Source: an uncultured Candidatus Saccharibacteria bacterium (GTDB lineage: Bacteria > Patescibacteriota > Dojkabacteria > SC72). Taken from it: 64,000 nt of DNA. Of the stretch, positions 5,524-38,545 are shown one piece after another; positions within the stretch are counted from its first letter, which is position 1, and each line of letters opens with the position of its first letter. A program made the position numbers and the translations under genes. The notes beneath the pieces are model-generated. The model saw only the letters and a program-made list of their open reading frames with translations. It had not been told where the DNA came from and searched no databases. The DNA is taken from assembly GCA_964405015.1 (NCBI GenBank), contig CAYOME010000001.1:77611-141610 (forward strand). The letters run 5' to 3'.

Positions 5524-7290
5524 ATGTGCGGTATTTTTGGATACATGGGAAATTCAAATGCCCAATCAATAATTCATCATGGATTAAAAAGGTTAGAATA
5601 TAGAGGATATGACTCATGGGGTATAAGTGTAATAGAGGACGGTAAAATACATACAGACAAGAATACAGGAGAGATACCAAAACAATATATACCACAAAAA
5701 TCTTCTAATATTGGAATAGGGCATACAAGATGGGCAACACATGGAGGAGTAACAATTACAAATGCTCATCCGCATTACTCATCTGATATGAGCTTCTCAT
5801 TAGCTCAAAACGGTATAGTAGAGAACTACATTTCACTTAAAACAATGTTAATTAAAAATGGATATACCTTTTCAACTGAAGTAGATACAGAAGTAATTGT
5901 AAAACTAATTGAAGATCATCTCTCTAATTCACAAAATCTAAAACAAGCATTAATCTCCTCCTTCAAACAACTCGAAGGTAGAAACACTGTCATACTGCTT
6001 GATAGTAAAAGTAATCAAATATATGCCATTAGAAATGGAAGCCCTTTAATATTAGGAATTGGGGAGGAAGATATATATATAGCATCTGATCCATTAGCAT
6101 TCAATCAATATTGTAAAAAAATAGTAGAGATAGATAATGGTGAATTAGTAGAAATAGAGTATAAACAATACAAAATATTTGATATATCAAATAATAAATA
6201 TATTAATAGGGTACCCAAATCGATTGATTACCTTGATACAGAAGTTTCTAAAGGAATATATGATGATTACATGATTAAGGAAATAATAGAACAGAAACAT
6301 ACAATATTAACAGCAACCCAATACACACAAAAAGATCTATTAACCTTAATAACACAGATTAAAAAATCAAATACAGTATATACAATAGGAGCAGGTACTG
6401 CTGGATACAGTGCTGATCAAGTAGCCTACTATTTAAGGAAGATATCAAATATTAAGGCAATTTCTGTAAAACCATATGAGATAGAATCATATATAGAATT
6501 GATAGATAAAGATGATACCGTTCTTGCTTTCTCTCAAAGTGGAGAAACTGCAGATACATTAGAAGTAATCGAAACACTTAAACAAAAAGGTACATATATA
6601 TCAAGTGTAATAAATATGCCCAGCTCAACCCTCGAGAGACTCTCTGATAGTGTCTATATGTCCAATGCAGGTAGTGAAATATGCGTAGCCTCTACAAAGG
6701 TATTTACATCTCAAATATCATTTGGGTATCTTTTAGCTATGTGTCTTGCTGATAAATATTCTTTAGCTAAAAAAGAACTAAGTACACTATCATCAAATTT
6801 AGAAATATTCTTTTCTAAACAAATGTTAAAAAAGATAGAGAATATTTCAAAAGAATTGGTAAAACAAGAACACTTCTTTATTCTTGGTAAAGGTCAAAAC
6901 TTCCATATAGCACAGGAAGGAGCATTAAAGATAAAGGAAATATCGTACAAACATTTTGAAGGCTTTGCAGCAGGAGAACTAAAACATGGAGTAATAGCAT
7001 TAATAGAGAAGGGTACTCCAGTCATCTCTATCATTTCAAATGATGAAAACAAAAAGGATTTAATATCTGCTACTCAACAAGTTAAAGCCAGAGGAGCTTT
7101 AACAATAGGGATTGGTGATAAACAGGAAGAGAATTGTTTTGATTTTTTCATAGAAGTGCCAGATACTGATACTCTGAAATCAATATCTAATGTCATACCC
7201 TTACAACTTCTTTCATATTACATATCAAAGAAATTGGGTAATAATATAGATAAGCCAAGGAACTTAGCTAAGTCTGTAACAGTAAAGTAG
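5524..7290 (+). CDS. glmS: Glutamine--fructose-6-phosphate aminotransferase (GlcN6P synthase)
   Basis: Starts 'MCGIxG' with the Cys2 nucleophile. It has an N-terminal class-II glutamine amidotransferase domain followed by two SIS domains, and is ~588 aa. Confidence 0.95.
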   Translation: MCGIFGYMGNSNAQSIIHHGLKRLEYRGYDSWGISVIEDGKIHTDKNTGEIPKQYIPQKSSNIGIGHTRWATHGGVTITNAHPHYSSDMSFSLAQNGIVENYISLKTMLIKNGYTFSTEVDTEVIVKLIEDHLSNSQNLKQALISSFKQLEGRNTVILLDSKSNQIYAIRNGSPLILGIGEEDIYIASDPLAFNQYCKKIVEIDNGELVEIEYKQYKIFDISNNKYINRVPKSIDYLDTEVSKGIYDDYMIKEIIEQKHTILTATQYTQKDLLTLITQIKKSNTVYTIGAGTAGYSADQVAYYLRKISNIKAISVKPYEIESYIELIDKDDTVLAFSQSGETADTLEVIETLKQKGTYISSVINMPSSTLERLSDSVYMSNAGSEICVASTKVFTSQISFGYLLAMCLADKYSLAKKELSTLSSNLEIFFSKQMLKKIENISKELVKQEHFFILGKGQNFHIAQEGALKIKEISYKHFEGFAAGELKHGVIALIEKGTPVISIISNDENKKDLISATQQVKARGALTIGIGDKQEENCFDFFIEVPDTDTLKSISNVIPLQLLSYYISKKLGNNIDKPRNLAKSVTVK

Positions 7291-7292
7291 GG

Positions 7293-8006
7293 CTATAAAT
7301 CCTTAACAAGAGAATATCTAAATGCCTTTTTATGAAAGTCCGCTCTGTATAAACCAATATTAAGAGTATTTTCTACAAAATCAGGAGTAACTTGTTCATC
7401 TGTAATGTTCTCGACATTTGAGGGTGTTTTGTCTGTTCTAATTAATAACCATAATTTGTCAGTAACCAATCCGGTCATAATGGCCTTAGAATTTACTAAT
7501 GCTTTAATATCTTGGGCAGAAAAGAAATTGTAGAAGATATGACCATCTTCACGAACATGTTTAGGATGTGTATGTATATTGAATAGATATTGTACTTCTA
7601 AAGCCTTAGGTACATTTTTGTGATATACATCCTTCCTTTTTAGTAGTTTTCCATCAAGGTATAGCTCTTTACGAGCATACTGTTTTTTAAGAGGATGATG
7701 AGAATACTTTACTTGAATACTACCTCCACTTTTGACCATCTTGTCTGAACCAGTATTTACTTCTGTTAATACAACTTCACCATCAGCCCAAAATACAGAG
7801 AAAGCTCTTTCTAGTCCATCCTTGTATGTTTTGTTGTATATATTAATAAGATCATCCCAGAAATCGGAAGGAAACTGTATAGCCTTTGGAAGATTGTATG
7901 GATATGGATATAGATTAGACGATCTTAAATCAACAATCTTTCTATACAATTGTAAAAAGGTAGTAGTCTCAATTCTAGAACTAAATAAAAAATCAAAAAT
8001 TCCCAT
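7293..8006 (-). CDS. Hypothetical protein with a RadC/JAB-like (MPN+) motif
   Basis: 'IHTHP...SAQDIKAL' resembles the JAB HxH...SxxD motif of RadC-like proteins, but the spacer is longer than usual; the N-terminal half is unknown. Confidence 0.4.
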   Translation of the reverse strand: MGIFDFLFSSRIETTTFLQLYRKIVDLRSSNLYPYPYNLPKAIQFPSDFWDDLINIYNKTYKDGLERAFSVFWADGEVVLTEVNTGSDKMVKSGGSIQVKYSHHPLKKQYARKELYLDGKLLKRKDVYHKNVPKALEVQYLFNIHTHPKHVREDGHIFYNFFSAQDIKALVNSKAIMTGLVTDKLWLLIRTDKTPSNVENITDEQVTPDFVENTLNIGLYRADFHKKAFRYSLVKDL

Positions 8007-16016: not shown

Positions 16017-16094
16017 GGTGGCTATAGCTCAATTGGTTAGAGCATCGGTTTGTGGAACCGAGGGTTGTGGGTTCAAGTCCCATTAGCCACCCCA
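16017..16094 (+). tRNA. tRNA-His (anticodon GTG), with encoded G-1 and encoded CCA
   Basis: A cloverleaf was built by hand. The acceptor stem is GTGGCTA/TAGCCAC with G-1:C73. D-arm is GCTC...GAGC and the anticodon stem is TCGGT/ACCGA with loop TTGTGGA. The T-arm is GTGGG-TTCAAGT-CCCAT, and the 3' end is CCA. Confidence 0.9.
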
Positions 16095-17576
16095 TTCTTG
16101 AGTTTTATTCAAATCGTATATCAGGTTAAACGGACTTTTCAGCTCTACATAGAGTTTTTTGTCGTCTACTTCAAGGTTCGAGGAAAGCATTCCTAGGAGT
16201 TGTCGTTTTCTTTCAATTTTCGAACTTTCAAATATTTCCCAAGCTCTTGATGTTATAGAAATTAGGTCTGTAACAACCTTTCCGTAGTTTATACTTGCAT
16301 CAAAGTATCTGTTCTTCTTTTCTTGTAACGACTCTTGTTCATCCTTCAATGACATTGCTTTTTTATCGTATATATCCTGTGTAATACTCTTCTTCAATGC
16401 AAAGTCCAGTAAAGTATCTAACTCTTTATCAAGTTCCTTTAAGCGTTTATCTATCCTTTCAACCTGTTCATCTTCAAATTTTCTTTTTTCTTTACTTATC
16501 CTGTTAATATCCCCAATGATTTCATCCATATATTCTGGAGGGATGACTAGTCCCTCCAAATAACTTTTGAGTTGCTCTAAAAGTATCTTTTCTGATACAT
16601 TCATATTTCCGCACTCTTCTTTTGAAGTGTTACATTGAGCATAGTTATTACCCTTTGTAGTGTATGTAGAAAACATCTTTCCACACTTCTTACATCTTAA
16701 TAGCCCTTTGAATATGTATTCCTTATCTCGATACCTTTCTGCATATCTAGATTTACCATCCTTAACCTCTTGGCATACATCAAACAGTTCTTTTGAAATG
16801 ATAGTTCCAAAATTATGAGGGTAATTAGTCTCTTTTATCCTGTATATTCCATAGTAGATAGGGTCTTTGAGCATTCTTTCAATATGAGATGTTGAAATAG
16901 GTCTCTCAATTCCACCTTTACCTTTTGTGGTTAATCCTTTTTCTCGCATTAGCTTTGCAAGTTTTTTGAAAGAGTATGTGCCTGTTGAATATAGTTCAAA
17001 GGCTTCTTTTACAAGTGGAGCTTTCTCTATGTCTAAAACCCCTTTAGAGCGTTCCTTACCGCTTATATTAACTCTTTGGTTAAGATACCCAACAGGAAGT
17101 TTCCCAATAGGTCTGCCTTGTGCTAGGTTTTCTTCTAGAGCCTTCCTAGTATTGTCGCTAACATACATACAATACATTTTTGCGCCCATAATAGACATAT
17201 CGTATCTTATCCAACTATCTGTTTTGGATTTACTGTCTATTACTAAATTTTCAGAAACGAAGTGTAAAATGACTTTACCATCTCGAATATTCTCATCAAG
17301 ATACACTTGTTCCTTGAAACCTCTTTGGAATCTATCAACTCTATCTGTAATTATTGCTAACGGCTCTTTTCCTGTCTGTTCGATAGCGTCATCTACAATC
17401 TTTAGGAATTTCTTTCTTTCGCCTCTAGTAGAGCTTTCTACTATTTGATAAGGCTCGTGGAGTAACTCAAAGTTCTTATCTTTGATATAATTATCTAACC
17501 TTCGGAGTTGTGCTTCTAGGGATAAACCATCTTCTTGGTCTCTAGAAGACACTCTAGCTATGATTATTGCTTTCAT
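16083..17576 (-). CDS. Large serine recombinase (integrase) 1
   Basis: N-terminal resolvase domain 'AIIIARVSSRDQ' with the catalytic Ser, a recombinase domain, a Cys-rich zinc ribbon (CKKCGK...C..C) and a C-terminal coiled coil. The 3' end overlaps tRNA-His by 12 nt. Confidence 0.9.
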   Translation of the reverse strand: MKAIIIARVSSRDQEDGLSLEAQLRRLDNYIKDKNFELLHEPYQIVESSTRGERKKFLKIVDDAIEQTGKEPLAIITDRVDRFQRGFKEQVYLDENIRDGKVILHFVSENLVIDSKSKTDSWIRYDMSIMGAKMYCMYVSDNTRKALEENLAQGRPIGKLPVGYLNQRVNISGKERSKGVLDIEKAPLVKEAFELYSTGTYSFKKLAKLMREKGLTTKGKGGIERPISTSHIERMLKDPIYYGIYRIKETNYPHNFGTIISKELFDVCQEVKDGKSRYAERYRDKEYIFKGLLRCKKCGKMFSTYTTKGNNYAQCNTSKEECGNMNVSEKILLEQLKSYLEGLVIPPEYMDEIIGDINRISKEKRKFEDEQVERIDKRLKELDKELDTLLDFALKKSITQDIYDKKAMSLKDEQESLQEKKNRYFDASINYGKVVTDLISITSRAWEIFESSKIERKRQLLGMLSSNLEVDDKKLYVELKSPFNLIYDLNKTQEWGG

Positions 17577-20061
17577 CAGTGTAATTCATTCTAAAACTTA
17601 TTCTATTTTCATAATTATCTTGCTTGACTAATTCGTAATAGAATTTATCATTCAGCTTTGCCTTCACTACACCTTCAGCTTCTAATCTTTCTATGGACAT
17701 TTCATTGATAAAATTGAATAAGTCTCCTTTATACAATGTGTCTTTGTTGCCTTCTAAATGCTCACCTTTGCTTTCAACAATATAGACAAAATCAAGTTTT
17801 CCATCCTCATCCTTCTTTGCTACCACAAAGTCAGGTCTAACCTTATCTTTTTGCCATCCTTGAATTGCATACCAGCCCTTACTTGCTCTATTTCTAACCC
17901 ACCAAATGGTGTTTTTTTGTCTTTCTAAATGCTTCGCGACATCAAGCTCTAATCCGTTTATGCTTGTAATATCAAAGTCTTCATATAGGTAATACTTGTA
18001 TGGGTTGTGCGGATAATCTTTGATTTTATCTTGCTCTGGTAATCTGAAACCAATTTCCTTGTCGCTAACTGCTATTACAAGTGTTTTGTCATCAACCATC
18101 CTATTAAATATCTCTTTTTCTTGGACTCTTTTGATATTTTCAAATGCTTTGATAATTTCAGAAATGATAAAACCATTATATTTACCTAAATCTTTTTCGT
18201 CTTTTACTTTCTTGATAAGTAACTTAAACAACTTTTCTGAAATATATCTAGATACAAAGGCATTTTCTATATAGTCATTTAATCTTCTTGTTAAGTATTC
18301 TGTATCGAAATGAACATCACTAAACCTTACTTCACTGCTCATACTCTCTGTGATAGCTCCTTCATCCATACCAACCTTAATAAGTGTTGTTTCAAATGTC
18401 TCATTGCCAATTAAAGGAATAATACCATCTGTTATAGTTTCCAAATCAACTCCTTCATAATCAATCTTTGGCTTTATATCTACACTATAGTTAAACTCTC
18501 TGTATAAACCATTCTTCTCTTTTATTAGCCATAAAGGAAGATACAAACTTTCAGGATACTTCTCTTTTAGCTCTCTCTTAATCTTCACGACCTTTGTTAC
18601 TGATTCACTTGTTTCAGTTTCTGTATTGATACTGTATTTGGCTAAATCATCAAGTCCTTCGTTCTTAAATCCATTCTTGATTGTAGTTAGAATATTTTGA
18701 GTATGTCCGTTACAGTAATAAATATAGCTCTCGTCTAGGATTGGAGTTCCAGTCTTCTTGCCAAATGGTTGTCTTAAGACTCTTCCTACTAACTGGGTTA
18801 CGCTTGTATTTGAATTTACATTAGGGATAATTCCCAAAATATATGCAAACGGACAATCCCAACCTTCTTTTAGAGCATCTTTAGTTATTATGTATCTGAT
18901 AGGGCATTCTCTCGAAAGAAGGTCTATATTTTCAATATCATTTACACTACTTGTTTTTATAGCGATTTCTTCATCGGGAACACCTATGTCCTTTAGATAT
19001 TCTTTAATATCTTCACTATGCACAAAACCTTTTCCTCTCTGCTCTTTACCAGTTCTTTCTACTTGTATCAAGGCTATTGGTCTTATGTATTGTCCTGTGT
19101 TACTGTCATAATCTTTAGCTACTTTCTCTATCTTCTCTCTATAATCCTTAATCTCTTTCGTCATTGTTTGCCAATCTTCATTGCTAGTTGGAGCAATTAT
19201 GTTCATATCCAGCTTAACCATTTCTGCATCTTTTAGCTCTTGTCCTGTTACAGAAACCAATACATTCATTCCTGCCTTTGGAGTTGCTGAAAAACCTACA
19301 ACCATAGAAGGATTTAATCCATTAACAGTTTCAATTGCCTTTGGTGAGAATACTTTGTGTATTTCATCAATGATAATAAGAGGTCTTGTCAACCTTAAGA
19401 CATTTCCTAAACTTGTTTTAACCTGTGGCATAAAAGAATTAACACCTTGAAAGACATCAAGATTAGGAACTTTTTCTAATAGCTCGTGATGTAAGTCATA
19501 TCTGTTATCTTGTGGAAAGAAAGAGTTGTATGAGCCACTATCCATAAACACTTTGAGGCTTTCTTTTGTAGTTCTATTTACTGATTGAATCATAAGCATA
19601 AGAACTACAAGGTTTTCTTCTACATCTTCCGCTCTTAATTCCTGATTCTTTTCTACAATAAGAGTATGTCCTGCACTTGCTTGGTCTAGTAGTTGTCTAT
19701 ATGGGTCTGCTTTATCTCTTAACCTTTCTACTGTTTGAGAGTAGATAATTTCAGATGGAACTATCCATACAACAAGTCCTGTTTTTCTTTTAGCAAATAT
19801 GTCTTGATACTGTCTTATTGTATCTACTGCCAAGAGCGTTTTACCGCCCCCTGTAGGAACTTTAATACACAGTCGAGGGTAGAACTCATTTAGACCATTT
19901 CTATCCATATCTGGGACTCTAGAGAGTCCTACCTTATTGAATGCTAGTTGAACCCAAGCGTCTGGGTCAACATCCTTCAACAAGCTTCTTACTTCAGATG
20001 CTGTTTCTAGGTAATCTTTGAGCTTTTTAGCTACTTTTGTTTGATATGGCTTGAATATCAT
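17554..20061 (-). CDS. res: Type III restriction enzyme, Res subunit
   Basis: SF2 helicase motifs: Walker A 'PTGGGKT' and DEAH-box 'IIIDEIHK'. ~835 aa. Sits immediately downstream of mod with a 2-nt gap. Confidence 0.85.
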   Translation of the reverse strand: MIFKPYQTKVAKKLKDYLETASEVRSLLKDVDPDAWVQLAFNKVGLSRVPDMDRNGLNEFYPRLCIKVPTGGGKTLLAVDTIRQYQDIFAKRKTGLVVWIVPSEIIYSQTVERLRDKADPYRQLLDQASAGHTLIVEKNQELRAEDVEENLVVLMLMIQSVNRTTKESLKVFMDSGSYNSFFPQDNRYDLHHELLEKVPNLDVFQGVNSFMPQVKTSLGNVLRLTRPLIIIDEIHKVFSPKAIETVNGLNPSMVVGFSATPKAGMNVLVSVTGQELKDAEMVKLDMNIIAPTSNEDWQTMTKEIKDYREKIEKVAKDYDSNTGQYIRPIALIQVERTGKEQRGKGFVHSEDIKEYLKDIGVPDEEIAIKTSSVNDIENIDLLSRECPIRYIITKDALKEGWDCPFAYILGIIPNVNSNTSVTQLVGRVLRQPFGKKTGTPILDESYIYYCNGHTQNILTTIKNGFKNEGLDDLAKYSINTETETSESVTKVVKIKRELKEKYPESLYLPLWLIKEKNGLYREFNYSVDIKPKIDYEGVDLETITDGIIPLIGNETFETTLIKVGMDEGAITESMSSEVRFSDVHFDTEYLTRRLNDYIENAFVSRYISEKLFKLLIKKVKDEKDLGKYNGFIISEIIKAFENIKRVQEKEIFNRMVDDKTLVIAVSDKEIGFRLPEQDKIKDYPHNPYKYYLYEDFDITSINGLELDVAKHLERQKNTIWWVRNRASKGWYAIQGWQKDKVRPDFVVAKKDEDGKLDFVYIVESKGEHLEGNKDTLYKGDLFNFINEMSIERLEAEGVVKAKLNDKFYYELVKQDNYENRISFRMNYTDESNNHS

Positions 20062-20063
20062 CG

Positions 20064-21647
20064 CTATTTTTCTCTTTCAAATAGGTTATACGGAATACTT
20101 ACGAACTTGATATTGAATTGCTCCAAGTATTCATCATCCATAAAACAAGCAGGTGCATATACAATCTTTTTAGTCTCATTCCCTTCGGAAATTTCTTTAG
20201 CCCATTCAAAGGTTATAGCCATCTTCTTAAGTTCTTCCATATCAGGAGTGTAGAGTAGGTATACTTCTGTGTGGTCTACTTTTCCTGCTAGATATTTCTT
20301 TTCATCTATATCTTTGTCTTTTGGTGATTGTCCTGTTGCAAGGTAATACACATATTTCGCTAATTGTTTATATGTAGGCAATTGTCCTGATAGTATCGTT
20401 TCAGCATCTATTGGTTGTCCAACTCTTCTATATTCAAAACCAATATCTTTATTTGTTAATTTCTTCTCAATTACTTTTACAACTCTCTCTCTTGTAATAT
20501 CTCTTGCAATATTCTTCTTTGGCTCCTTTTCACTGTTTTCAGGCATTTGAATAAGGATAAATTTTCTATTACCTTCGTCTTCTTCATTTAACTCTAAAAC
20601 TGCTTGTGCTGTAGTTCCTGAACCTGCAAAAGCATCTAGAATAATGCCATCTTTATTTGGCGATAAACTAATTAAATGTTTAAGTAAAGTAACTGGTTTT
20701 GGGTTCTCAAACAGACTTTCCTCGCCAAGTAACTCTCGTAAATCACGGCTTGCTGAATCTGTTGTTCCATATAAATCGAGCAAATTGGGTTGAGCAGAAA
20801 GGCTGTCTTCTTCTTCGAAATCGTATATTTTTAATCGAACAATTCCATCGTCACCTTTTACAAAACGACCCTTCTCTTCAAGGGCTAAAGCTTTATCTTT
20901 GCCTATTTGCCATCTTTTCCCTCTGCGTGGCTTTTGTCCCAGTATCTCGAATTGCATAGAGTCCCTTTTATAGCTTCCAGTGTTTTTCTTCTCTATAACA
21001 CTTAATCTATAATTACCCTCTTCATCATCGTATGGATATTCCCTTGTTTCAGAACTTCTTACCCTTGGGTTCAACTTTGCTTTTGTAGTTTTGGAATAGC
21101 ATAAAATATACTCCGTAAGAGAGCTAACCTCTGCACCTGTTACATTGGATGTTGTTCCTTTCTTCTTCCATAGAAAGGTTGCCTTAAAATTTTCATCAGT
21201 AAAAATTTCATCCATAATGTCTCGAAGGCGGTGTATTTCGTTATCGTCGAGACTAATAAAAATCACCCCACTTTCAGAGAGCAACTCCCTCATAAGTTTT
21301 AATCTTGGAGTCATCATAGATAACCATTTATCGTGTCTTGTTAAATCATCAGAACCTACTTCTTTACCTATCCATTCCTTTACCAAAGGGCTGTTTACAT
21401 TGTCGTTGTAAACCCAGCCCTCATTTCCTGTGTTGTAAGGCGGGTCTATATAGATACAATCAACTTTCCCTGTGTATTGTGGTAACAAGCTCTTCAACGC
21501 GGGCAAATTATCACCTTCAATAATCAAGTTTCCATCTGCTTTATCCTGTTTATATGAGAGTTTTTCATCTAAATCTAAAGTATGGTATGGAACTGACATA
21601 TGATGATTCCATATTATGTTTTTACCCTTAAATTGTAGAGTTGCCAT
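20064..21647 (-). CDS. mod: Type III restriction-modification methyltransferase, Mod subunit (N6-adenine, beta class)
   Basis: Motif IV 'IYIDPPYNTG' and AdoMet motif 'FAGSGTTAQA'; the order is mod-res, as in Type III systems. Confidence 0.9.
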   Translation of the reverse strand: MATLQFKGKNIIWNHHMSVPYHTLDLDEKLSYKQDKADGNLIIEGDNLPALKSLLPQYTGKVDCIYIDPPYNTGNEGWVYNDNVNSPLVKEWIGKEVGSDDLTRHDKWLSMMTPRLKLMRELLSESGVIFISLDDNEIHRLRDIMDEIFTDENFKATFLWKKKGTTSNVTGAEVSSLTEYILCYSKTTKAKLNPRVRSSETREYPYDDEEGNYRLSVIEKKNTGSYKRDSMQFEILGQKPRRGKRWQIGKDKALALEEKGRFVKGDDGIVRLKIYDFEEEDSLSAQPNLLDLYGTTDSASRDLRELLGEESLFENPKPVTLLKHLISLSPNKDGIILDAFAGSGTTAQAVLELNEEDEGNRKFILIQMPENSEKEPKKNIARDITRERVVKVIEKKLTNKDIGFEYRRVGQPIDAETILSGQLPTYKQLAKYVYYLATGQSPKDKDIDEKKYLAGKVDHTEVYLLYTPDMEELKKMAITFEWAKEISEGNETKKIVYAPACFMDDEYLEQFNIKFVSIPYNLFEREK

Positions 21648-25918: not shown

Positions 25919-27571
25919 TCATAATAACGTCATATAACCGACCCCAGATAATATTTTCATAGATTCTAATGCGTTAAAAGGTTCACGAAGCTCATAGTGA
26001 AGCACCTTTTTATCACCTACAGAAATGTTCACAAACACTAATTTGACCAACTGATCAATTAGATAGGCATTTTCAGTATTTTCTATTGTAGCAACTATGT
26101 TTTTAAAGAAGTTCACAAATAAATCATAATCAGGGAATTCAACATTTGCATGATATTCAGCTTCCTTATTCTGAACTTCTAGACCCTCTCTTTCTACCTC
26201 TAGATCTCTTATTTGGTGAATAATAATCTTCATTTCTTTTGAAAGCTGATTATTAACCACTTCATCTGTGGTTTTCAATATTTTCTCACTATATAGATTC
26301 CTCTTCTTCTCAAGACTAGTAATTCTTATATTCAATTTCCTAATTTCCTCATTTCTTTCTTTTGTTAAAGAATTTACCTCTTCAAAGTAAATCATCTTAG
26401 TTTTATCATAACTAGGCCTTGTAACATTCAAATTCTTACTTATAAAATCAGTTACAAAATCTAGAATTATCTTACCTCTAATTGTATTAGCAATCGGTTT
26501 AATCTTTTTTGTCCTTCTAGTTTCTTTACACTTATTATTCCCACAAGTAACATTCAAATATCTATCAGACTTTCCTGCACTGACACCTGGAATCATAATA
26601 GAACCACAATCACTGCACATTACAAAATCCTTAAAAGGTCTGAAGTTATTATTCATTTTCCAACCTCTTGGATATATTGTTCCTCTCTTTTGAATTGCGA
26701 TGAAATCAGAAGCCGAAACCATAGGTTTAAAATCAGGATCAACAGATAATAAATCAATAACTTGATCACCATAACAATAAAAGCCCGCAGAAAATGGATC
26801 CTTAAAGAAGCCAGAAAGCTTACCCGTATTTAACTCTAATCCTTCATTTTCTAATTCAGCAACAATCTCTTTCTGGGATTTTCCTTCTTTATATTGTTCC
26901 CAAGCATAAGTATAACTATCGTAAGTGTTTTTATCGGGTCTAAAGAAATCAGCTTTATTGGGAAGATATCCTTTTTTACTGGATCCCATGTATTTACCCT
27001 CACTAACTTTCTTCTTATTTCCTCTTTTTGTATCTTCAGAAAGTTTATCCGAGAATTCCTTAGCCATTGCAAAAAGGATACTTAATGTCATTTTACCCGC
27101 CGCATCATTATTGAAAGTGTAAGAGGGGAATTTGAGGTCAATAATATGGTCGTTGTCCAACATGTCCATAATCTCACCTGACTCTTTCATGTTCCTTGCT
27201 AATCGGTCTGGATGCCATGCAAGAATGGAATTATATGAATTCCCTGAGTTCAAGGTATCAAGCATTCTTTGAAATTCAAGTCGCTTACCAGCTGTCATAG
27301 CACTTTTTTCTTCTCTAATAATCTCAACAACTTCTAGATTATTATCCTTAGCAAATTTCTTACAAATATCTATCTGATCATCAATAGATTGAACTTGTCT
27401 CTTTTCATCTTCGGTAGATTTACGAGCATAAATAACATAGAGAGCTTTCTTATCTATTAAATCTCTTTCATCTTTAGTCTTTTTCTTTTTAGAGTTGTAA
27501 ACTTGAGCGTAAGAGCGCAGTAATTCTCTAGATTGAACTTCTGTAAGTTTGTCCGCAGATTCCTTCATCAA
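25919..27571 (-). CDS. Large serine recombinase 2
   Basis: Resolvase domain 'ALYVIYARKSTEDE' with the catalytic Ser, a recombinase domain, a zinc ribbon 'CSDCGS...CGNNKC' and a C-terminal coiled coil. Same orientation as recombinase 1. Confidence 0.85.
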   Translation of the reverse strand: MMKESADKLTEVQSRELLRSYAQVYNSKKKKTKDERDLIDKKALYVIYARKSTEDEKRQVQSIDDQIDICKKFAKDNNLEVVEIIREEKSAMTAGKRLEFQRMLDTLNSGNSYNSILAWHPDRLARNMKESGEIMDMLDNDHIIDLKFPSYTFNNDAAGKMTLSILFAMAKEFSDKLSEDTKRGNKKKVSEGKYMGSSKKGYLPNKADFFRPDKNTYDSYTYAWEQYKEGKSQKEIVAELENEGLELNTGKLSGFFKDPFSAGFYCYGDQVIDLLSVDPDFKPMVSASDFIAIQKRGTIYPRGWKMNNNFRPFKDFVMCSDCGSIMIPGVSAGKSDRYLNVTCGNNKCKETRRTKKIKPIANTIRGKIILDFVTDFISKNLNVTRPSYDKTKMIYFEEVNSLTKERNEEIRKLNIRITSLEKKRNLYSEKILKTTDEVVNNQLSKEMKIIIHQIRDLEVEREGLEVQNKEAEYHANVEFPDYDLFVNFFKNIVATIENTENAYLIDQLVKLVFVNISVGDKKVLHYELREPFNALESMKILSGVGYMTLL

Positions 27572-30125: not shown

Positions 30126-30824
30126 TTAGTAATTATTTATTAAATCTATACCCTTTTCTGCATCAGGAAATACTTCAAACTTATATTTATTTGTAAAATA
30201 ATATTCAGGTAACTGTGAGAGTATCTTAGAATTAGATTCACCTTTCAACTGGTGATCACATCCCTCTATAATATGTGTTTGAACAGTCCTTGCGCTACTT
30301 GTATATCCTTTAAGGAATTCAAGGGTGTCAGGGGCTATTACAGAGTCTTCTGAGCCTATCACAATGAATAGATCTCCCTTATATCGTGGTAAATACTTCT
30401 GAATATCTTCCCTCAAGTTAGGGAGATTTATAAATGGATTAATAACTAAGACTTTGGTTACTTCTGGAAATTCCCAAGCTGTAAGTAATGCTGAAGCACC
30501 TCCAGCTGAGAATCCCATTAAAAATATTTCAGGGGTTTCAGATACAACGAATTCCAACGTTTTTTCTAAAGTGTAGTTAATCACCGTCCTTGCAGTTTCG
30601 TTGTAATCCTGAGGTCTTTCATTAGGTATTCTTACAAATGAAGCGATATTCCTTTTTTGAAGATAATTAGCTAAATTCAAGTATTTATTCTCATATCCTT
30701 CAGAAGTTCCACCTGCTCCAGGAATATTAATAATTACTTTGTTTGTTGAAGTAGGGTGATATGAGACAGGAATATCCCACCATGATTTAAGATAGATCTT
30801 TTCAGTTATGAAGGTATCACTCAC
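30126..30824 (-). CDS. Alpha/beta hydrolase (esterase or dienelactone-hydrolase-like)
   Basis: Nucleophile elbow 'GFSAGG' (GxSxG) and a C-terminal His (CDHQ). 232 aa. Confidence 0.6.
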   Translation of the reverse strand: MSDTFITEKIYLKSWWDIPVSYHPTSTNKVIINIPGAGGTSEGYENKYLNLANYLQKRNIASFVRIPNERPQDYNETARTVINYTLEKTLEFVVSETPEIFLMGFSAGGASALLTAWEFPEVTKVLVINPFINLPNLREDIQKYLPRYKGDLFIVIGSEDSVIAPDTLEFLKGYTSSARTVQTHIIEGCDHQLKGESNSKILSQLPEYYFTNKYKFEVFPDAEKGIDLINNY

Positions 30825-30827
30825 TTC

Positions 30828-31289
30828 CTAATATAATGCTCCTTGAATTACTTTAAAATATTTACCTCTATTCCTGTGATATTGGGGAAATTCTTTCTCT
30901 AAGTTTTCTACAATTTCCTTAAGGTTATTATCAACCTTTCTCCAGCAATCTAGTTTATCCTTTTGACATAGTATTTTTTCTTCATCACCAGAGATTCTAT
31001 TAGTAAACCAGTAAACTTTGTGTCTAAAATCGATAGCATCTGTTCTCAGGTCTTCCCAATTTACAACCTTCATAAACTTTAATCTATAGAATATATCTCT
31101 CTCCAAGACTCTATCAAAGTGTTCAATTAGTAAAGACGTATCACCACTTCTACAAAGGGTAGATAATATAAATACATTTCCATCAAATATCGTAGATAGT
31201 ATATCTAGAAATTCTTTTAGGTATGGCATTTGTTTACCATCTTTTATTAATATGACATTATCAATATCTATATATGCTCTCATAATCAT
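30828..31289 (-). CDS. Small HAD-like hydrolase (possible nucleotidase)
   Basis: N-terminal 'AYIDIDNVIL' matches HAD motif I (DxDx[TV]), with 'ILSTL' and 'GDEE' as candidate motifs II and IV. Only 153 aa. A 3-nt gap separates it from the hydrolase. Confidence 0.35.
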   Translation of the reverse strand: MIMRAYIDIDNVILIKDGKQMPYLKEFLDILSTIFDGNVFILSTLCRSGDTSLLIEHFDRVLERDIFYRLKFMKVVNWEDLRTDAIDFRHKVYWFTNRISGDEEKILCQKDKLDCWRKVDNNLKEIVENLEKEFPQYHRNRGKYFKVIQGALY

Positions 31290-31325
31290 ATGATTATAAA
31301 TGATCTGTGATTCTATACAGAAGCT

Positions 31326-31829
31326 TTACTCCTTAAATAATCCTCTCCTTTGACCTTCTTCTACTCCATATCCAATTCTTACTTCAAGCCTAGAATCTAA
31401 CTGCTTTTTTAATTCTCTGTAGGAATCAATCATCATTTTATATTCAATAAAAGATATTTCTTCTTTTTTATCTTTAGCCTCCTTGAGGACTGTAATTAGT
31501 GCAGTTAACACTTGTATATTTTTCTCAAACAAGTCTAAGTATTGTTTTAAGAGAACATCCTCTGGGAAATCTTTTCGAGATTGTATTTTCTCTAAGCTTT
31601 GTTTACATACCAAAAGATCATTCAAACAATCTTCGGATTTATCCTCATTTTTATTAAGCATTAGTTGCAAAACGGATTTGTCTTTTTGGAAGTATACCCT
31701 ATCTATCTCATTAAAAATTTTGAATACCTGAAAAGAATCTACTATTGCTTGTGTGTAAGCCTCTTTATCGTCTGACATATAAACTTCTGACCAAGTTATA
31801 TATAAATTGTTTGTGAGTATTTGAGACAA
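31326..31829 (-). CDS. Hypothetical helical protein; the start codon is uncertain (TTG at 31829 or ATG at 31778)
   Basis: The 167-aa ORF in the track begins at a TTG; the first ATG would give 150 aa. First gene of a three-gene minus-strand operon. Confidence 0.4.
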   Translation of the reverse strand: MSQILTNNLYITWSEVYMSDDKEAYTQAIVDSFQVFKIFNEIDRVYFQKDKSVLQLMLNKNEDKSEDCLNDLLVCKQSLEKIQSRKDFPEDVLLKQYLDLFEKNIQVLTALITVLKEAKDKKEEISFIEYKMMIDSYRELKKQLDSRLEVRIGYGVEEGQRRGLFKE

Positions 31830-31831
31830 GT

Positions 31832-31950
31832 GGTCTCCCGCTCACAGGTAGGTATCGCTACTCTACCTACTAGGGTTTCCCCTAGTAACCAGGTCAGTGA
31901 TTGCAAGACGGAAGACCGCCTATAACACTGACCTGGATTTAATTTTCTTT
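31832..31950. other. GC-rich structured element of unknown function: three perfect hairpins, a possible pseudoknot and a T-rich tail
   Basis: H1 is GTAGGTA-(9 nt)-TACCTAC at 31848-31870. H2 is TAGGG-TTTC-CCCTA at 31871-31884. H3 is CCAGGTCAGTG-(26 nt)-CACTGACCTGG at 31889-31936. The 5' GGUCUCC (31832-31838) can pair with GGAAGACC (31910-31917) in the H3 loop. H3 is followed by ATTTAATTTTCTTT on the + strand. Local GC is far above the ~30% background. Confidence 0.5.
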
Positions 31951-32023
31951 ACCATGCCTAATAAATAGGTTTAGGTAACTAAGATAATATTATTATGAGT
32001 TTGATAATTTTACAAATGCATAA

Positions 32024-33901
32024 TTAGAATCTATATACAATGTTCTTTTTTGCCTTTCTTTGACCACTGAAATCAAGAAGCATTTTTTCGAAATTCTCAT
32101 TACTTTCTTTTAACTTTTTTTGTTTTTTATCATAATAAAGAGTATCTTCAACAAACCCTTTAATTTCACTTGATACTAACTTAGTTGTGTCTTGAGGACA
32201 AACAGACAACAATTCTAATAGCATAGAAAATACTAAATTACTGACAAAGAAATAATATGGTATTAACTCGTTATTAAAACCTACTTCTAAATGATCCGCT
32301 CCGTTGTGTATAATCTTTGAGCGATATGAATAAGCTTTGCTATATCTTTTATTAAAATTCTGAAAATTTAAGCCTAAAGACTTAATTATTTTAGAATGAT
32401 TTTTAAAGAGCTCTTTATTTTGATAATTTATTGAATGTTCGTATTCTAAAGCATTACGCATATTTGAATTTTTAAATTCAGGAACTTTGTTGATTATCTC
32501 AATTATCTTTTTAAACTCTAGGTCTCCTTCGCCTTTTCTCCTAGAAGGAGTAAAATATGCTCCGAGTTTATCTATAATTCCCCACAGCTCTACGTAGGAG
32601 GATGCTAAAGAATGGGGTTGCTTAGAATCACGGTAATCCCTCAACAAGCCTTTTATGAAAAGCCTGAAGTTCTTACCTTTTCTATGAAGATTTGTTATTG
32701 ATGGATTTAGATATTTTGCATACTCAAAACTATACAACGAATTATAGGATCTTCCTTTATGACTATTATAAATGTAATTCCTCTCTGAAAAAATCGCGTT
32801 TCTATTAAATAACGATAAAATCAAAGATATCTCTTCAAGAAATTCTAACGGTTGTTCAACTTTTTGGGAATTTAATTCTAATGTATGTGTCCAAATCATT
32901 CTCCCCTCCGATGGAGGAAATATTTCCTCTTTAATCTCAGCTGGAATCCCAAGGGAGATATCTACAGATCTCTTAGAGGTCTTAGTCGGTTTATAAAAAA
33001 ATCTCATATCTTGATCATAAGTGAGATTCTTAACAATCCTAAATCGAGATGCGGAGATATAAGGAAAGCCATCGATCTCAAAGTTGTAAAGTTTATATAG
33101 CAATATTTTACTTTTCGAATCAAGACCTCTATCCTTTATATTTATTAGCAATCCAGTTGACAAATCAGACTTTAAAAAAGTATCTTTTATAGAGATAAAT
33201 CCACCTTTGTATGAATACCTTTCTTCCAATAATTTTAACAACCTTTCTGAAAATATATAGAATTCACCTAAAAATATGTTAACAGCTTTGAAAAGTTCAG
33301 GAATAGGTGAATTGTCTCTTGGTATAATACTAATCTTTTTCGTTCCATCTTCTTCTATAGATGTTTGCGCTTTTGTCATGTTTAAATACCCTTTTTGAAA
33401 CCTGTTCAACAAAATTTGTATTTGCTGTTGATTCTCAGTTAACAGAAAAAGCTTCAAGTATTCTGCAATTGTTGTATCTCTTAGCGCTAGCTCGTTAATA
33501 ATCTCTTCAACCTGAATTTCTTCATCTTTGACACCCAAATCAAAGAAATAAGCAATAAAATTTAACATACTATATTTTATTGTGTAAATGTGGTTGATCA
33601 GATCTAACAAAAGGAAACCTTTGACGAAGTCTTTGCTATACATCTCATTAGAAAGGGGTAGTTCGCCATTTATATGTTTAACTGAAAAATTCAAATCTTT
33701 TATTCGATCACGTAAATAAATAATTCTTTGTAGAGAGGCTTGATTACGAACAAACTTGTTAATGTTTAGTTTTTCATGAATGCTAACTCCTGAATTTAAT
33801 GGATCCTCTGTTGCAAACTGCGATACAGTAGATTGTATCTTATCCCATATTTCTAATATTTTTTCCGGATCTTCTGTAACACTTAGTTTATTATGTTCCA
33901 A
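32024..33901 (-). CDS. Hypothetical protein with a C-terminal Rx4H (HEPN-like) motif
   Basis: 625 aa, mostly helical. 'YRSKIIHNGADH' near the C-terminus fits the HEPN Rx4-6H signature. No other recognisable domain. Last gene of the MmeI-like operon. Confidence 0.4.
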   Translation of the reverse strand: MEHNKLSVTEDPEKILEIWDKIQSTVSQFATEDPLNSGVSIHEKLNINKFVRNQASLQRIIYLRDRIKDLNFSVKHINGELPLSNEMYSKDFVKGFLLLDLINHIYTIKYSMLNFIAYFFDLGVKDEEIQVEEIINELALRDTTIAEYLKLFLLTENQQQIQILLNRFQKGYLNMTKAQTSIEEDGTKKISIIPRDNSPIPELFKAVNIFLGEFYIFSERLLKLLEERYSYKGGFISIKDTFLKSDLSTGLLINIKDRGLDSKSKILLYKLYNFEIDGFPYISASRFRIVKNLTYDQDMRFFYKPTKTSKRSVDISLGIPAEIKEEIFPPSEGRMIWTHTLELNSQKVEQPLEFLEEISLILSLFNRNAIFSERNYIYNSHKGRSYNSLYSFEYAKYLNPSITNLHRKGKNFRLFIKGLLRDYRDSKQPHSLASSYVELWGIIDKLGAYFTPSRRKGEGDLEFKKIIEIINKVPEFKNSNMRNALEYEHSINYQNKELFKNHSKIIKSLGLNFQNFNKRYSKAYSYRSKIIHNGADHLEVGFNNELIPYYFFVSNLVFSMLLELLSVCPQDTTKLVSSEIKGFVEDTLYYDKKQKKLKESNENFEKMLLDFSGQRKAKKNIVYRF

Positions 33902-34636: not shown

Positions 34637-37600
34637 TTAGAAAGCCACAGTGTCAATTTCTTTGATTATTTTATCAGTTTCTCTAAGAACTATTGTTATC
34701 ATGGAATAGTGTTCAATATCATCAGGACTTAATTCTCTCCCTTTCCTATCCATCAACCATTTCTGAGCTGGTTGATATCCACCTATATAGAAATTCCAAG
34801 CTACTTCGGATACATTTCCGAAACATTGAGTAGAGTTGACATATATCTTTCCATCCTCAAACTTTGTCCTTTCAACAACATTATTTCCTTCTCCTAGGTA
34901 TGATACCTCGTATGGGTCTATATTCTTGTGTTCGAGTAGATGATATTTGATAAGTTCATTTCCTAATTTAGTCAATTTATCAAATGTCTCCCGGTCTTTA
35001 GGATATGGAATTCTAGGATAATCAATTTTTAAAAATTCTTGAAATTTCTCTCTATATTTTGAACTATTAAGAACAGCGTAAGTATACCTAAGAATCTCTT
35101 CTGGAGTTATTTTGCCAATGTGAGACTCTATCTTTTCAATGATACCTTCGTTTAAGTTAGCTTTCCTCACATCTTCACCCTCGGTAAAAGTATAGAGTGG
35201 AAATATTTGCTCTGCACCTTGCATACCTGGCCGAGACCAATATCTTCTGTCGACAATTCGATTAGAGATAAAACAAGGGGAGCTTCGAGATTCGTCAAAA
35301 CCTCTTTTCACAATAAGACCTACATTATTTCTCAACATATACTTCATAACGTTATATCTGCCATTGCATACAAAGCCATTCTGTTTACCGGTATAGAAGG
35401 TCTTACGAATATCAAAGGGTCTATATAAGATATCAACAAAATTAGTATATTCACCGATATTTTGAAGGATGTCTGCCTTTGCTCTGTTGATTTTCCAATC
35501 TCGTGAATCCTTCGTTTTATATTTTAAGGCAATTTCGTTTTCCGACAGATCGGCAAAATCATCAACAACATTCCGGATTTCTTGATCTGTAAATTGAATT
35601 GCTATCGAATCCCTAACAGTTTCAACACCAGAGACAGATTGAATAAATAAACCATCTATAGGAATATATTCATCGTAAATTGACTTATTCGTAAAATCTT
35701 TTTTAACAAAATAAAAATTTGGTTTAGTATAGTCAAGCTTAGAATACTCAATCTTATCAAATTCATTTGATAATCCCTCAAATTTCTTTTTTCTCAATCC
35801 AAATAGATCTTTATGATAAACACTTGCTAAGTTTGTTTTATCATTTCCAACTTTAACAAAAATGTTAATAGAAACACCTTGTTGGATATCAAAAACATTC
35901 TCATCCCTTGAACCATCTGGTGCAACTTCCTTCTTTTTTGAGTTTCCATGCAAGTCTAGTATATAAATATTATCAAATGTCTCTAAAAGGTGCTTTCGCA
36001 TTTGCCTATGGGTGATACCATCCAAAAATGAATTATTTGTAATCATTGCCACAATTCCACTACCATTCTTCTCAACTAATGATTCTGCAAACCTTATAAA
36101 CTTTATATAATCATCATCTAGATTTATTTTTTTCTCATTTAAATCTTGTTTGTATACTTTAATTAAATTCTGAATCCAATCTCCTTTATTTTGTGAACTA
36201 ACACTATATGGAGGGTTTCCTAATATAACCATTATGGGTTTGTCTTTTTTAATCTCAGAAGCTTCTTTAGACTCTTGAGATATACTATCAGCTAAACCAA
36301 AGCCTTCGAACATATCACCAATTGTGTTTCCTTCTTCCAGAGAATTAGTTAGGTAGATTCCTAATCTTCTGTTGTTAAAGTATTTGAAACCCATTTCTTT
36401 TAACAACATACTCATCTTCAGATGAGCAATGGTATATGGAGCAATCATTATTTCAAATCCAAATAACCTCGGAAGAACTTCATGTAATACATAGCTTCCC
36501 CAATTTCCAGCTTGTTTTTGTCTTCTCTCGTGTATTATCTTGATAACTTCCGTTAAAAAAGTTCCTGTTCCTGTAGCAGGGTCTAATACTTGAACTACAT
36601 GTCCTTTTTCATTCTTGGAGCTGTTCGCAAGTCCTCCTGTGAGCTTAAAATCATGTTCTAGTATATGGTCTACACTTTTTACAATGAATTGAACAACTGG
36701 AAGTGGGGTATAGTAAGCTCCAAATTCTTTTCTCTTCTTACTATCATACTCTTGTAGAAAATCCTCATAGAAGTGTATTACAGGGTCTTTAGATCCTTTC
36801 TCCGTGCCGTAATAATTACTGATGAGTTTAGAGATATCTGAATGAGAAAATACTCTACAAAGCTCATCAACGATACTATCCAATCTGTCATCAAAATCAG
36901 CTCCTGCTATATGGTCGAAGAAATGTCTTAGTAGTGGGTTTGAAGCTGGAACTAAATCCCTAGCTTCTGACCTAGTAAAAGTATCAGGAGATGTATCGTG
37001 GAATCTTGCAACAAACAAGCCGTAGACTAGAGTTTGTGCATACATGTCTGCGAAATCATCGGTTGACATATCATGTATGAGTTGTCTTTTCATGGTCTCG
37101 TAGACTTTATAGATACTTCGCTTCTCTTTTTCAGGACTATTAAGCATCTCTCTTGCATTCTCTCTAATACGATATGCTTTTCCACCCATTATCTTAGCCA
37201 GATGAGAACCAGATTTAATTGCTTCTTTATGAGATTCCGTAAATTGGATTAATGTTTTTCTTAATAGCTCAAAGTTTTCTGGATTGTATGATAGGGTTCT
37301 TTCTTTTTTATCGTATGAAGCAATAGAAATAGGCTCAACGTATTTAATTCCGTTCCTGTAGAATCTAAATTCTAAATAATCTGTTAATATGAGATTGTCA
37401 TATCCATAATATCGCGTAAGTTGTTCAGATTTCTCAATCTTATCAAGTGATACTCCAATATCTTTTACTTCTACATAAAGTAGGGGAACACTTCCTTTTG
37501 ATAAAACAAAGTCTGGCTTATTACCACCTACAGCCTTTCCATCGTGATCAATGTTTGTAACTTTTATTTCGCTAAATATTTCTTTTAGAAAGTTTTCGAA

Positions 37601-37708
37601 TGGTGTCCGGTATCCATATTCCGATGTTTGTGTTTGTGAATACTTTTCAGATACTTCGTTTAAGTAGCGATTCAATATCTCGTAGGTTGTTTTTAAAGTT
37701 GTATCCAT
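34637..37708 (-). CDS. MmeI-family Type IIL restriction-modification enzyme (fused PD-ExK endonuclease, gamma-class N6-adenine methyltransferase and target-recognition domain)
   Basis: The N-terminal 'PDFVLSKGSVPLLYVEVKDIGVSLDK' parallels the MmeI nuclease motif 'VDLFWPGILLIEMKSRGKDLDK'. 'GAYYTPLPVV' matches MmeI 'GAHYTSEANI'. Motif IV 'ILGNPPYSV' matches MmeI 'ILGNPPFVG'. 1023 aa. Confidence 0.85.
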   Translation of the reverse strand: MDTTLKTTYEILNRYLNEVSEKYSQTQTSEYGYRTPFENFLKEIFSEIKVTNIDHDGKAVGGNKPDFVLSKGSVPLLYVEVKDIGVSLDKIEKSEQLTRYYGYDNLILTDYLEFRFYRNGIKYVEPISIASYDKKERTLSYNPENFELLRKTLIQFTESHKEAIKSGSHLAKIMGGKAYRIRENAREMLNSPEKEKRSIYKVYETMKRQLIHDMSTDDFADMYAQTLVYGLFVARFHDTSPDTFTRSEARDLVPASNPLLRHFFDHIAGADFDDRLDSIVDELCRVFSHSDISKLISNYYGTEKGSKDPVIHFYEDFLQEYDSKKRKEFGAYYTPLPVVQFIVKSVDHILEHDFKLTGGLANSSKNEKGHVVQVLDPATGTGTFLTEVIKIIHERRQKQAGNWGSYVLHEVLPRLFGFEIMIAPYTIAHLKMSMLLKEMGFKYFNNRRLGIYLTNSLEEGNTIGDMFEGFGLADSISQESKEASEIKKDKPIMVILGNPPYSVSSQNKGDWIQNLIKVYKQDLNEKKINLDDDYIKFIRFAESLVEKNGSGIVAMITNNSFLDGITHRQMRKHLLETFDNIYILDLHGNSKKKEVAPDGSRDENVFDIQQGVSINIFVKVGNDKTNLASVYHKDLFGLRKKKFEGLSNEFDKIEYSKLDYTKPNFYFVKKDFTNKSIYDEYIPIDGLFIQSVSGVETVRDSIAIQFTDQEIRNVVDDFADLSENEIALKYKTKDSRDWKINRAKADILQNIGEYTNFVDILYRPFDIRKTFYTGKQNGFVCNGRYNVMKYMLRNNVGLIVKRGFDESRSSPCFISNRIVDRRYWSRPGMQGAEQIFPLYTFTEGEDVRKANLNEGIIEKIESHIGKITPEEILRYTYAVLNSSKYREKFQEFLKIDYPRIPYPKDRETFDKLTKLGNELIKYHLLEHKNIDPYEVSYLGEGNNVVERTKFEDGKIYVNSTQCFGNVSEVAWNFYIGGYQPAQKWLMDRKGRELSPDDIEHYSMITIVLRETDKIIKEIDTVAF

Positions 37709-38536: not shown

Positions 38537-38545
38537 CCACCCCAT
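38537..38545 (+). repeat. Candidate attR core: a direct repeat of the tRNA-His 3' end (CCACCCCAT)
   Basis: Exact 9-mer copy of 16087-16095 (the tRNA 3' terminus). It is GC-rich in an AT-rich intergenic region and sits where the accessory cargo ends. Confidence 0.4.

Follow-up and report, generated by a model that had tools for sequence, protein, structure and literature searches.

The window, by which we mean the whole stretch of 64,000 nucleotides that was analysed (GC ~32%), holds a tRNA-His gene whose 3' end contains the 9-nt sequence CCACCCCAT (16087–16095). This sequence occurs exactly twice in the window, the second copy (38537–38545) sitting just past the last island gene; two copies occurred in 0 of 100 shuffles, and the pair probably marks the ends of an integrated island of ~22.4 kb. 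The island contains a structured RNA, LOOT, together with two serine recombinases, two restriction-modification systems and a protein of 625 amino acids. LOOT is 6.6 and 15.8 kb from the two island ends, well inside the limits, and the preliminary description of this DNA was right to place its hairpin cluster within an island. One restriction-modification system (17554–21647, minus strand) is a type III-like pair of a ResIII helicase and an N6_N4 methylase; the other (34637–37708, minus strand) is a single-chain type IIG/ISP enzyme (PADLOC REase_MTase_IIG, E 1e-268). The features around the RNA are:

16087–38545, no strand: probable integrated island (9-nt repeat CCACCCCAT at both ends, Pfam matches)
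25919–27571, minus strand: large serine recombinase 2 (Resolvase match), on the LOOT strand and 4.2 kb downstream of LOOT
30126–31289, minus strand: 153-aa protein and 232-aa alpha/beta hydrolase, the remainder of the co-directional operon (translations, Pfam)
31326–31778, minus strand: 150-aa protein, first gene after LOOT; likely start ATG 31778, a TTG at 31829 falling inside the RNA
31808–31979, minus strand: whole LOOT element, comprising the Rfam core, a pseudoknot tail and the start of a downstream competing segment (model R2)
31984–31989, minus strand: -10-like hexamer TATTAT, candidate LOOT promoter, ~6 nt upstream of P1 (read from sequence)

LOOT thus precedes the ATG at 31778 of the 150-aa/153-aa/hydrolase operon. 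The 150-aa protein had no match in Pfam, NCBIfam or PADLOC, and a word-indexed homologue search returned only the protein itself; a gene call for it is present in L001, and tblastn placed homologues directly after LOOT at two other loci, L004 (49% identity) and L263 (60%). The hydrolase is 62% identical to the gene at the equivalent position in L004. The order from RNA to gene is kept in the related islands L004 and L263; the preliminary description had suggested checking homologous islands for such an arrangement.

Identity and fold of the RNA

An Rfam scan of the whole window gave three matches above gathering score: the tRNA-His gene, a glmS ribozyme and, at the hairpin cluster, the LOOT RNA family (RF03000; 31851–31977, minus strand; 57.9 bits against a gathering score of 46.4; E 2.8e-8 for the whole window). 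The match spans model positions 1–121 of 121; all family helices are formed in the window copy, and alignment to the RF03000 consensus placed both its CCUAA..GCAUGG hairpin and its GAAA loop. A cmsearch with model R2, made from 107 family members, returned a single window match (31808–31979, minus strand; 70 bits, E 2.3e-21), which ranks among the lowest-scoring members by comparison with copies from candidate-phyla-radiation (CPR) genomes (72–146 bits). The hairpin cluster is a divergent minus-strand copy of the LOOT RNA, a family of no known function; because this family was already catalogued, the element is not a new kind of object. The preliminary description had foreseen reclassification as a known mobile-element end or a REP-type repeat. 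The first part holds in so far as the element belongs to a catalogued RNA family tied to mobile elements; the second does not, because LOOT is single-copy in the window, and a REP-type repeat was rejected. At E values up to 10, the other Rfam families at the site were chance snoRNA-level matches only; no Rfam riboswitch family matched the element, and no tRNA or tmRNA was found at its site.

LOOT comes from the screen of Weinberg et al. (2017; PMC5737381), whose main text gives no description of it. The Rfam 14 paper (PMC7779021) displays it as a 'metagenomic-based' family, and a structural note in PMC7657543 is the sole other mention found in the literature searched, in which no function, host range or partner is on record. 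Rfam assigns LOOT the type 'Gene; sRNA'. The window copy shares with RF03000 the helices, the GAAA loop and the receptor-like hairpin in a full-length match; neither the Rfam model nor its entry covers the pseudoknot tail, segment C, the link to recombinases or the gene context. The parts of the RNA are:

31851–31977, minus strand: LOOT core per RF03000 (covariance-model match)
31949–31978, minus strand: P1–P2 hairpin with internal loop CCUAAAC (31975–31969) / GGCAUGG (31958–31952) (folds)
31937–31948, minus strand: A-rich linker J1/3 (AAGAAAAUUAAAU), which aligns with the AAAA conserved in RF03000
31889–31936, minus strand: P3, perfect 11-bp stem (31926–31936 with 31889–31899) enclosing P3a (folds)
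31906–31921, minus strand: P3a, inner hairpin enclosed by P3 (folds)
31908–31917, minus strand: segment A (GGUCUUCCGU), which forms the loop and 5' strand of P3a and also the pseudoknot 5' strand
31868–31887, minus strand: P4, 8-bp stem with a GAAA tetraloop (31876–31879) (folds, Rfam alignment)
31847–31867, minus strand: P5, 5+3 bp with a bulged A and a GCGA (GNRA) loop (31855–31858) (folds)
31832–31841, minus strand: segment B (GCGGGAGACC), pseudoknot 3' strand, outside the Rfam model and followed by a U-poor tract, CCACUUGUC
31812–31846, minus strand: B:C hairpin (UGUGAG..GAGAC CACUU GUCUC..CUCACA) of the nested minimum-free-energy fold, which excludes the pseudoknot

Folding of 31825–31955 was far better than that of shuffled sequence on the plus strand (−48.4 kcal/mol, z −4.85) and on the minus strand (−55.0 kcal/mol, z −5.52), with 0 of 200 shuffles as good in either case, so that the hairpins are real. 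Model match and covariation together show an RNA of five helices in which the GAAA loop of P4 matches the receptor-like loop of P1–P2. Its 11-bp perfect stem had been described correctly; the stems given as 7 and 5–6 bp are the 8 bp of P4 and the 5+3 bp of P5, and the limits of 31832–31950 were too small, omitting the 5' hairpin (31949–31978) and the downstream segment to ~31812. The minimum-free-energy nested fold of 31745–31979 contains P3a plus B:C, with A:B as the alternative duplex. This A:B pseudoknot (31917–31908 with 31841–31832; 10 bp, −18.6 kcal/mol), which the preliminary description had sketched, is genuine, and the family data given below bear it out. Two of its pairs are G-U on the minus strand; because these become A-C mismatches on the plus strand, and because the covariance model matches the minus strand, the functional strand is the minus strand.

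A plus-strand sRNA that carries a terminator and lies antisense to the first operon gene's start codon had also been put forward. This reading takes the wrong strand, as model match and G-U pairs are both on the minus strand; what was seen as a T-rich terminator is simply the opposite strand of the linker (31937–31948), A-rich and conserved in the minus-strand RNA, and no terminator-like sites were found on either strand across 31200–32400. The candidate was rejected.

The classical 11-nt GAAA-tetraloop receptor is CCUAAG/UAUGG, and we take the P1–P2 internal loop to be a variant of it that differs only by A-C replacing G-U. The loop pattern occurs once in the window against 0.01 expected, and the identical CCUAAAC...GCAUGG internal loop is found inside a group I intron (L105, RF00028), a likeness to group I intron P-domain hairpins. 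Established motif knowledge and the same loop in the intron suggest that P1–P2 is GAAA-tetraloop-receptor-like. LOOT differs from the intron in that its site has neither catalytic core elements nor an RF00028 match; that model has no match in the window, though it detects L105.

By comparison with the family, the window copy has a longer A-rich linker, a 6-bp inner hairpin and a degenerate U-run. At the relative position of its TATTAT, the loci L004, L261 and L263 have TATAAT, and a -10 box lies upstream of most family members among the matches listed. A two-hexamer promoter scan found no recognisable promoter for the window LOOT and did not flag TATTAT.

Relatives, covariation and competing pairings

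Scanning a single genome for each species with a sequence pattern gave at least 119 loci, ~110 of which are LOOT among the matches listed, as judged by our own models and Rfam. Receptor, GAAA loop and some of the linker were fixed by the pattern itself, and their conservation therefore rests on the Rfam consensus and not on the sample. The loci examined were ~8 kb each, and errors in their MAG labels are possible; the methods for calling ORFs, testing hydrophobicity and searching for recombinases (four queries) were crude. CPR/Patescibacteria lineages are named in 48 of 80 genome titles among the matches listed, and LOOT is widespread in CPR genomes. With a narrower pattern, 15 of 15 metagenome matches were true LOOT, three of which (L261, L263 and L264) belong to the subfamily of the window copy. 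Viral contigs contain very few LOOTs: a first scan yielded none among the 44 most stable tested, of the matches listed, a second gave two chance matches and a third gave three true LOOTs among five matches. On the three scans together, a phage-borne element was rejected.

The loci L004 and L005, which encode homologues of the 625-aa protein, carry LOOT (55.5 bits). The RNA of L004 is 89% identical to that of the window, though the 625-aa proteins are 35% identical. Four pairs are altered on both sides between the two copies; the compensatory changes comprise two in P3 and two double changes in the pseudoknot, and extend to P5, which in L004 keeps the same architecture with a GUGA loop and altered stem pairs.

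Covariation was then assessed in an alignment of 107 LOOT sequences from the matches listed (A4), in which 87% of helix cells are paired, against 66% in shuffles and 38–48% in slid controls. The A:B pseudoknot is 92.8% paired and 11/11 of its pairs covary, for a helix that lies outside the Rfam model; P4 is 96.7% paired (8/8 pairs covarying), P3 has 10/11 covarying pairs, and P3a is 74.5% paired (3/4). Since A:B and P3a are mutually exclusive and each covaries, two exclusive pairings are both conserved. In the same alignment strand-specific G-U pairs are common in the helices, the variable parts are paired helices and not free guide-like loops, and the J1/3 columns are A-rich, partly forced by the search pattern; the pseudoknot sequence falls into several covarying classes among the matches listed.

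Directly downstream of B, at least five of 9 nt are U in 104 of 107 copies, the window copy having the lowest number (3). A segment C complementary to B follows in ~60% of loci among the matches listed; B:C complementarity across the family is −13.3 kcal/mol, against −9.1 for shuffled (p 2e-16) and −10.3 for cross-locus pairs (p 1e-9). C is in turn complementary to the sequence downstream of it (−9.0 kcal/mol versus −7.1 in shuffles, p 1.6e-6) and often pairs with the SD or AUG, for example in L127, L128, L202 and L240; family support for this last pairing is modest, and it is not evident in the window copy. Mutually exclusive conserved pairings that would form an expression platform, as looked for in riboswitches and attenuators, were therefore found in A:B versus P3a, B:C and the U-run. 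As C is transcribed after the U-run, a classical antiterminator role is impossible for it.

Genes beside LOOT and the islands that carry it

Among the matches listed, the next ORF is co-directional with LOOT at 102 of 106 loci, usually within ~60 nt, and upstream genes are mostly divergent from it. The window has the same leader arrangement, and the family strand matches that of the operon, in keeping with an earlier proposal that the element, read on the minus strand, is a structured 5' leader of what was called the 167-aa/HAD-like/hydrolase operon. Loci L261 and L263 are 93% identical over LOOT and the leader to the start codon, and thereafter have unrelated ORFs; homology between related loci begins at the LOOT 5' edge or ends at the 3' edge.

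The downstream proteins form 78 similarity clusters among 102 and have no common or dominant Pfam family. An N-terminal hydrophobic segment was detected in 61 of 99 downstream proteins versus 9 of 108 upstream neighbours, and a TM-like segment in 73 of 99 versus 13 of 108. The downstream genes are hyper-diverse, and by this crude hydrophobicity test 62–74% are predicted to encode membrane or secreted proteins. No pathway or function is shared by them beyond this membrane/secreted bias, and no ligand-pocket-like conserved junction is evident in LOOT beyond the tertiary-contact motifs; a classical pathway riboswitch was rejected on the first of these grounds.

The absence of a function common to the downstream genes would also suit a free-standing trans-acting sRNA gene with its own promoter and terminator, next to which the downstream gene is incidental. 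The Rfam type, the -10 box and the U-run after the last helix in most copies are compatible with such a gene, which we nonetheless consider quite improbable given the orientation of the flanking genes, the strong enrichment of membrane proteins downstream, the conservation of the L261/L263 leader up to the start codon, and B:C and C:start complementarity that reaches past the U-run.

Across the ~8-kb loci, the only recurring neighbour of LOOT among the matches listed is a large serine recombinase gene. It is present at 54 of 125 LOOT loci and at none of 121 control loci that add up to the same length (p 1e-19); roughly every second LOOT locus shows no recombinase within its 8 kb. The recombinase is upstream and divergent in 40 cases, downstream on the same strand in 11, upstream on the same strand in 4 and downstream on the opposite strand in 0, at distances of 0.1–5.8 kb, its start lying ~90–300 nt from LOOT in several loci. 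In L261 a recombinase likewise lies downstream of LOOT, and recombinase 2 of the window shares 49% identity with it. No link between LOOT and serine recombinases was found in the literature searched.

Genes for tRNAs lie upstream of LOOT in 18 cases and downstream in 2, several of them directly past the recombinase 3' end, and in L171 LOOT adjoins tmRNA. In unrelated loci a tRNA gene converges on the recombinase gene so that the two 3' ends touch or overlap: in the window (16083–17576, minus strand, with tRNA-His at 16018–16094, plus strand), in L004 (5569–7167 / 5536–5607), in L261 (5872–7479 / 7461–7534) and in L128, and a tmRNA gene takes this place in L171. This suggests that the attachment site of the elements lies in the tRNA end and in the recombinase's own coding end. 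Taken together, the neighbourhoods show LOOT to be carried by integrative islands whose enzyme is a large serine recombinase and whose insertion points are tRNA or tmRNA genes; within these islands LOOT heads co-directional and highly variable cargo genes.

The preliminary description had considered LOOT itself as a DNA-level site: an att or recombination site on which serine recombinase 2 would act, or alternatively a single-strand origin. Association with serine recombinases, homology breakpoints at the LOOT edges and the inverted repeat of P1–P2 could be read in this way. The evidence on where the boundaries lie is difficult to reconcile with it: the att site of a large serine recombinase is a short dyad-symmetric site at the element boundary, LOOT is kilobases from both island ends and single-copy per island, and the recombinase 3' ends abut tRNA/tmRNA genes, so that the att sites must lie there. 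The strand-specific G-U pairs, GNRA loops and GAAA-receptor motif are moreover features of RNA. LOOT was rejected as integration target or att site, and we regard a DNA-level role of any of these kinds as extremely improbable.

A physical role of the RNA in the life cycle of the element, as replication primer or origin of an excised circle, or as a recombinase cofactor or directionality factor, would draw on the recombinase being the only conserved gene partner, in strict geometry and in several loci with its start close to LOOT, and again on the breaks of homology at the LOOT edges. RNA-based prophage replication origins exist (PMC7157519). We think such a role improbable: the recombinase varies in distance and may be divergent or co-directional, about half of the loci have none, the variable LOOT parts are paired helices and not guide-like loops, and neither the coupling to the next start codon nor the pairings B:C and C:start would be accounted for.

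The second neighbour of LOOT in the window is the gene for the 625-aa protein (32024–33901, minus strand), which had no match in Pfam, PADLOC or NCBIfam and only two non-self homologues among 5.8 billion proteins. Its C-terminus has an R-x4-H motif (YRSKIIHNG; RRSNLIHTA in L004) that looks HEPN-like by eye. That LOOT might be the RNA partner of this protein, as a type III antitoxin or guide, is raised by their adjacency in the window, by the adjacent 35%-identical homologue in L004/L005 and by the conserved motif, read from translations. The orientation of the two differs, however, between the window and L004; in L261 a 985-aa RelA_SpoT-domain protein takes the equivalent position beside LOOT, and the 625-aa protein is absent at the other LOOT loci. 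LOOT is a single non-repetitive element without ToxI-type tandem repeats, its would-be partner is not conserved, and the HEPN assignment has no backing from Pfam or PADLOC. A partnership with the 625-aa protein is very improbable and was rejected.

A candidate switch and its alternatives

On balance we favour, with moderate confidence, a reading in which LOOT is an element-borne, cis-acting, switchable leader with two exclusive folds that gates the cargo genes. In the off state A would pair with B, and the U-run that follows B in most copies would make this a terminator-like helix; the C-rich segment C, set free, would mask the ribosome-binding or start region. In the on state A would be locked in P3a and B paired with C, so that the cargo genes could be transcribed and translated. 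A ligand, a protein or the state of the element are candidate triggers for the choice of fold. Because the U-run of the window copy is degenerate, control there would more likely act via B:C and translation or RNA stability than via termination.

The CI RNA of satellite phage P4 and the c4 RNA of P1/P7 are immunity RNAs of mobile elements that lie in the leader of the operon they control and shut down its genes. LOOT resembles them as an element-encoded leader RNA in which one segment is complementary to an upstream and a downstream segment, B pairing with both A and C. This raises the possibility, which we hold to be doubtful, that LOOT serves its element as an immunity or maintenance RNA and works in trans as well: a stable species of ~150–170 nt would be cut or terminated from the leader, its exposed segment would pair with matching A or C segments in transcripts from its own element or from a related one that enters the cell, silencing the genes on them, and the variable pseudoknot would define specificity types. 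Carriage on integrative elements beside a recombinase, the A-B-C layout, terminator-like ends in most copies, several covarying pseudoknot classes and a compact fold suited to a stable RNA all fit. LOOT shows no sequence or model similarity to these RNAs, however, and no c4 or other immunity-RNA family matched it in Rfam even at E up to 10; its pairing is an intramolecular pseudoknot, and A:B formed in cis would hide B. The copies L186 and L194, in one genome, share an identical pseudoknot sequence, which also tells against this reading. P4/P1-type elements use tyrosine recombinases and LOOT elements serine recombinases. The immunity RNA and the cis-acting leader are not mutually exclusive.

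The c-di-GMP-I riboswitch (GEMM-I) is a tetraloop-receptor riboswitch in 5' leaders, with alternative pairings and a terminator-like helix. LOOT shares with it the leader position, the GNRA-receptor contact, alternative pairings that include a terminator-like helix, and varied downstream genes of which many encode membrane or secreted proteins, and differs in having no riboswitch match, known ligand or pocket-like junction and in its strong tie to mobile elements. In the integron platform an integrase gene is divergent from the promoter that drives variable cassettes, and the commonest LOOT layout is alike: a recombinase, a divergent promoter region and co-directional variable genes, with a sharp boundary after LOOT. 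LOOT elements differ from integrons in using a serine and not a tyrosine recombinase, in showing no attC-like repeats and in inserting at tRNA/tmRNA genes; LOOT is furthermore an RNA and usually single-copy.

A bolder reading, in our view rather unlikely, is that LOOT is the signature RNA of an undescribed family of integrative elements in CPR bacteria and their relatives, which a large serine recombinase would insert at tRNA or tmRNA genes. LOOT would be their P4-CI-like immunity or maintenance switch and would gate an exchangeable cargo slot, in which the pseudoknot would set specificity classes and membrane-protein and defence cargo would be swapped at the LOOT 3' edge.

The pseudoknot and competing pairings of LOOT, its leader position, the membrane-protein bias of the genes behind it and the recombinase link appear not to be on record. 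The window on its own is a modest finding, since it adds to a known family one divergent copy whose terminator-like tract is degenerate; it does give an orphan RNA a defined setting, in a tRNA-His island and in front of an operon. If these leads hold, LOOT would serve as a marker by which mobile islands, and the cargo they carry, can be found in CPR genomes, where little is known of mobile elements; it would also be a candidate new regulatory RNA mechanism.

Several minor observations were made among the relatives. Two LOOT copies lie a few kb apart in L171 (4059–4213 and 6699–6845) and in L140 (741–905 and 4876–4980), and L186 and L194 are two copies in one MAG with paralogous downstream genes. 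A conserved ACAAYUKAAUA stands ~5–15 nt before P1, after the -10 box, in most CPR copies (L127–L245); the window subfamily lacks this motif or has an altered form of it, and there a similar ACAAUUUA follows LOOT. The motif before P1 may be the transcript 5' end, an operator or the divergent recombinase promoter. A different RNA, from Bacteroidales and viral contigs (L157, ~2130–2295; L183, ~3088–3280), has the CCUAAAC...GCAUGG hairpin of LOOT at its start and a tRNA-like GGTTCGAGTCC arm at its end, and scores weakly against the LOOT model (22–36 bits); it is probably a group I intron within a tRNA gene.

Elsewhere in the window, the glmS ribozyme (RF00234; 5354–5490, plus strand; 60.2 bits) lies directly upstream of glmS (5524–7290), an ordinary arrangement. 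Two giant surface proteins (1503 and 2223 aa) are also encoded, and a heliorhodopsin gene (59320–60138, plus strand; PF18761, E 1.4e-103) is found amid housekeeping genes.
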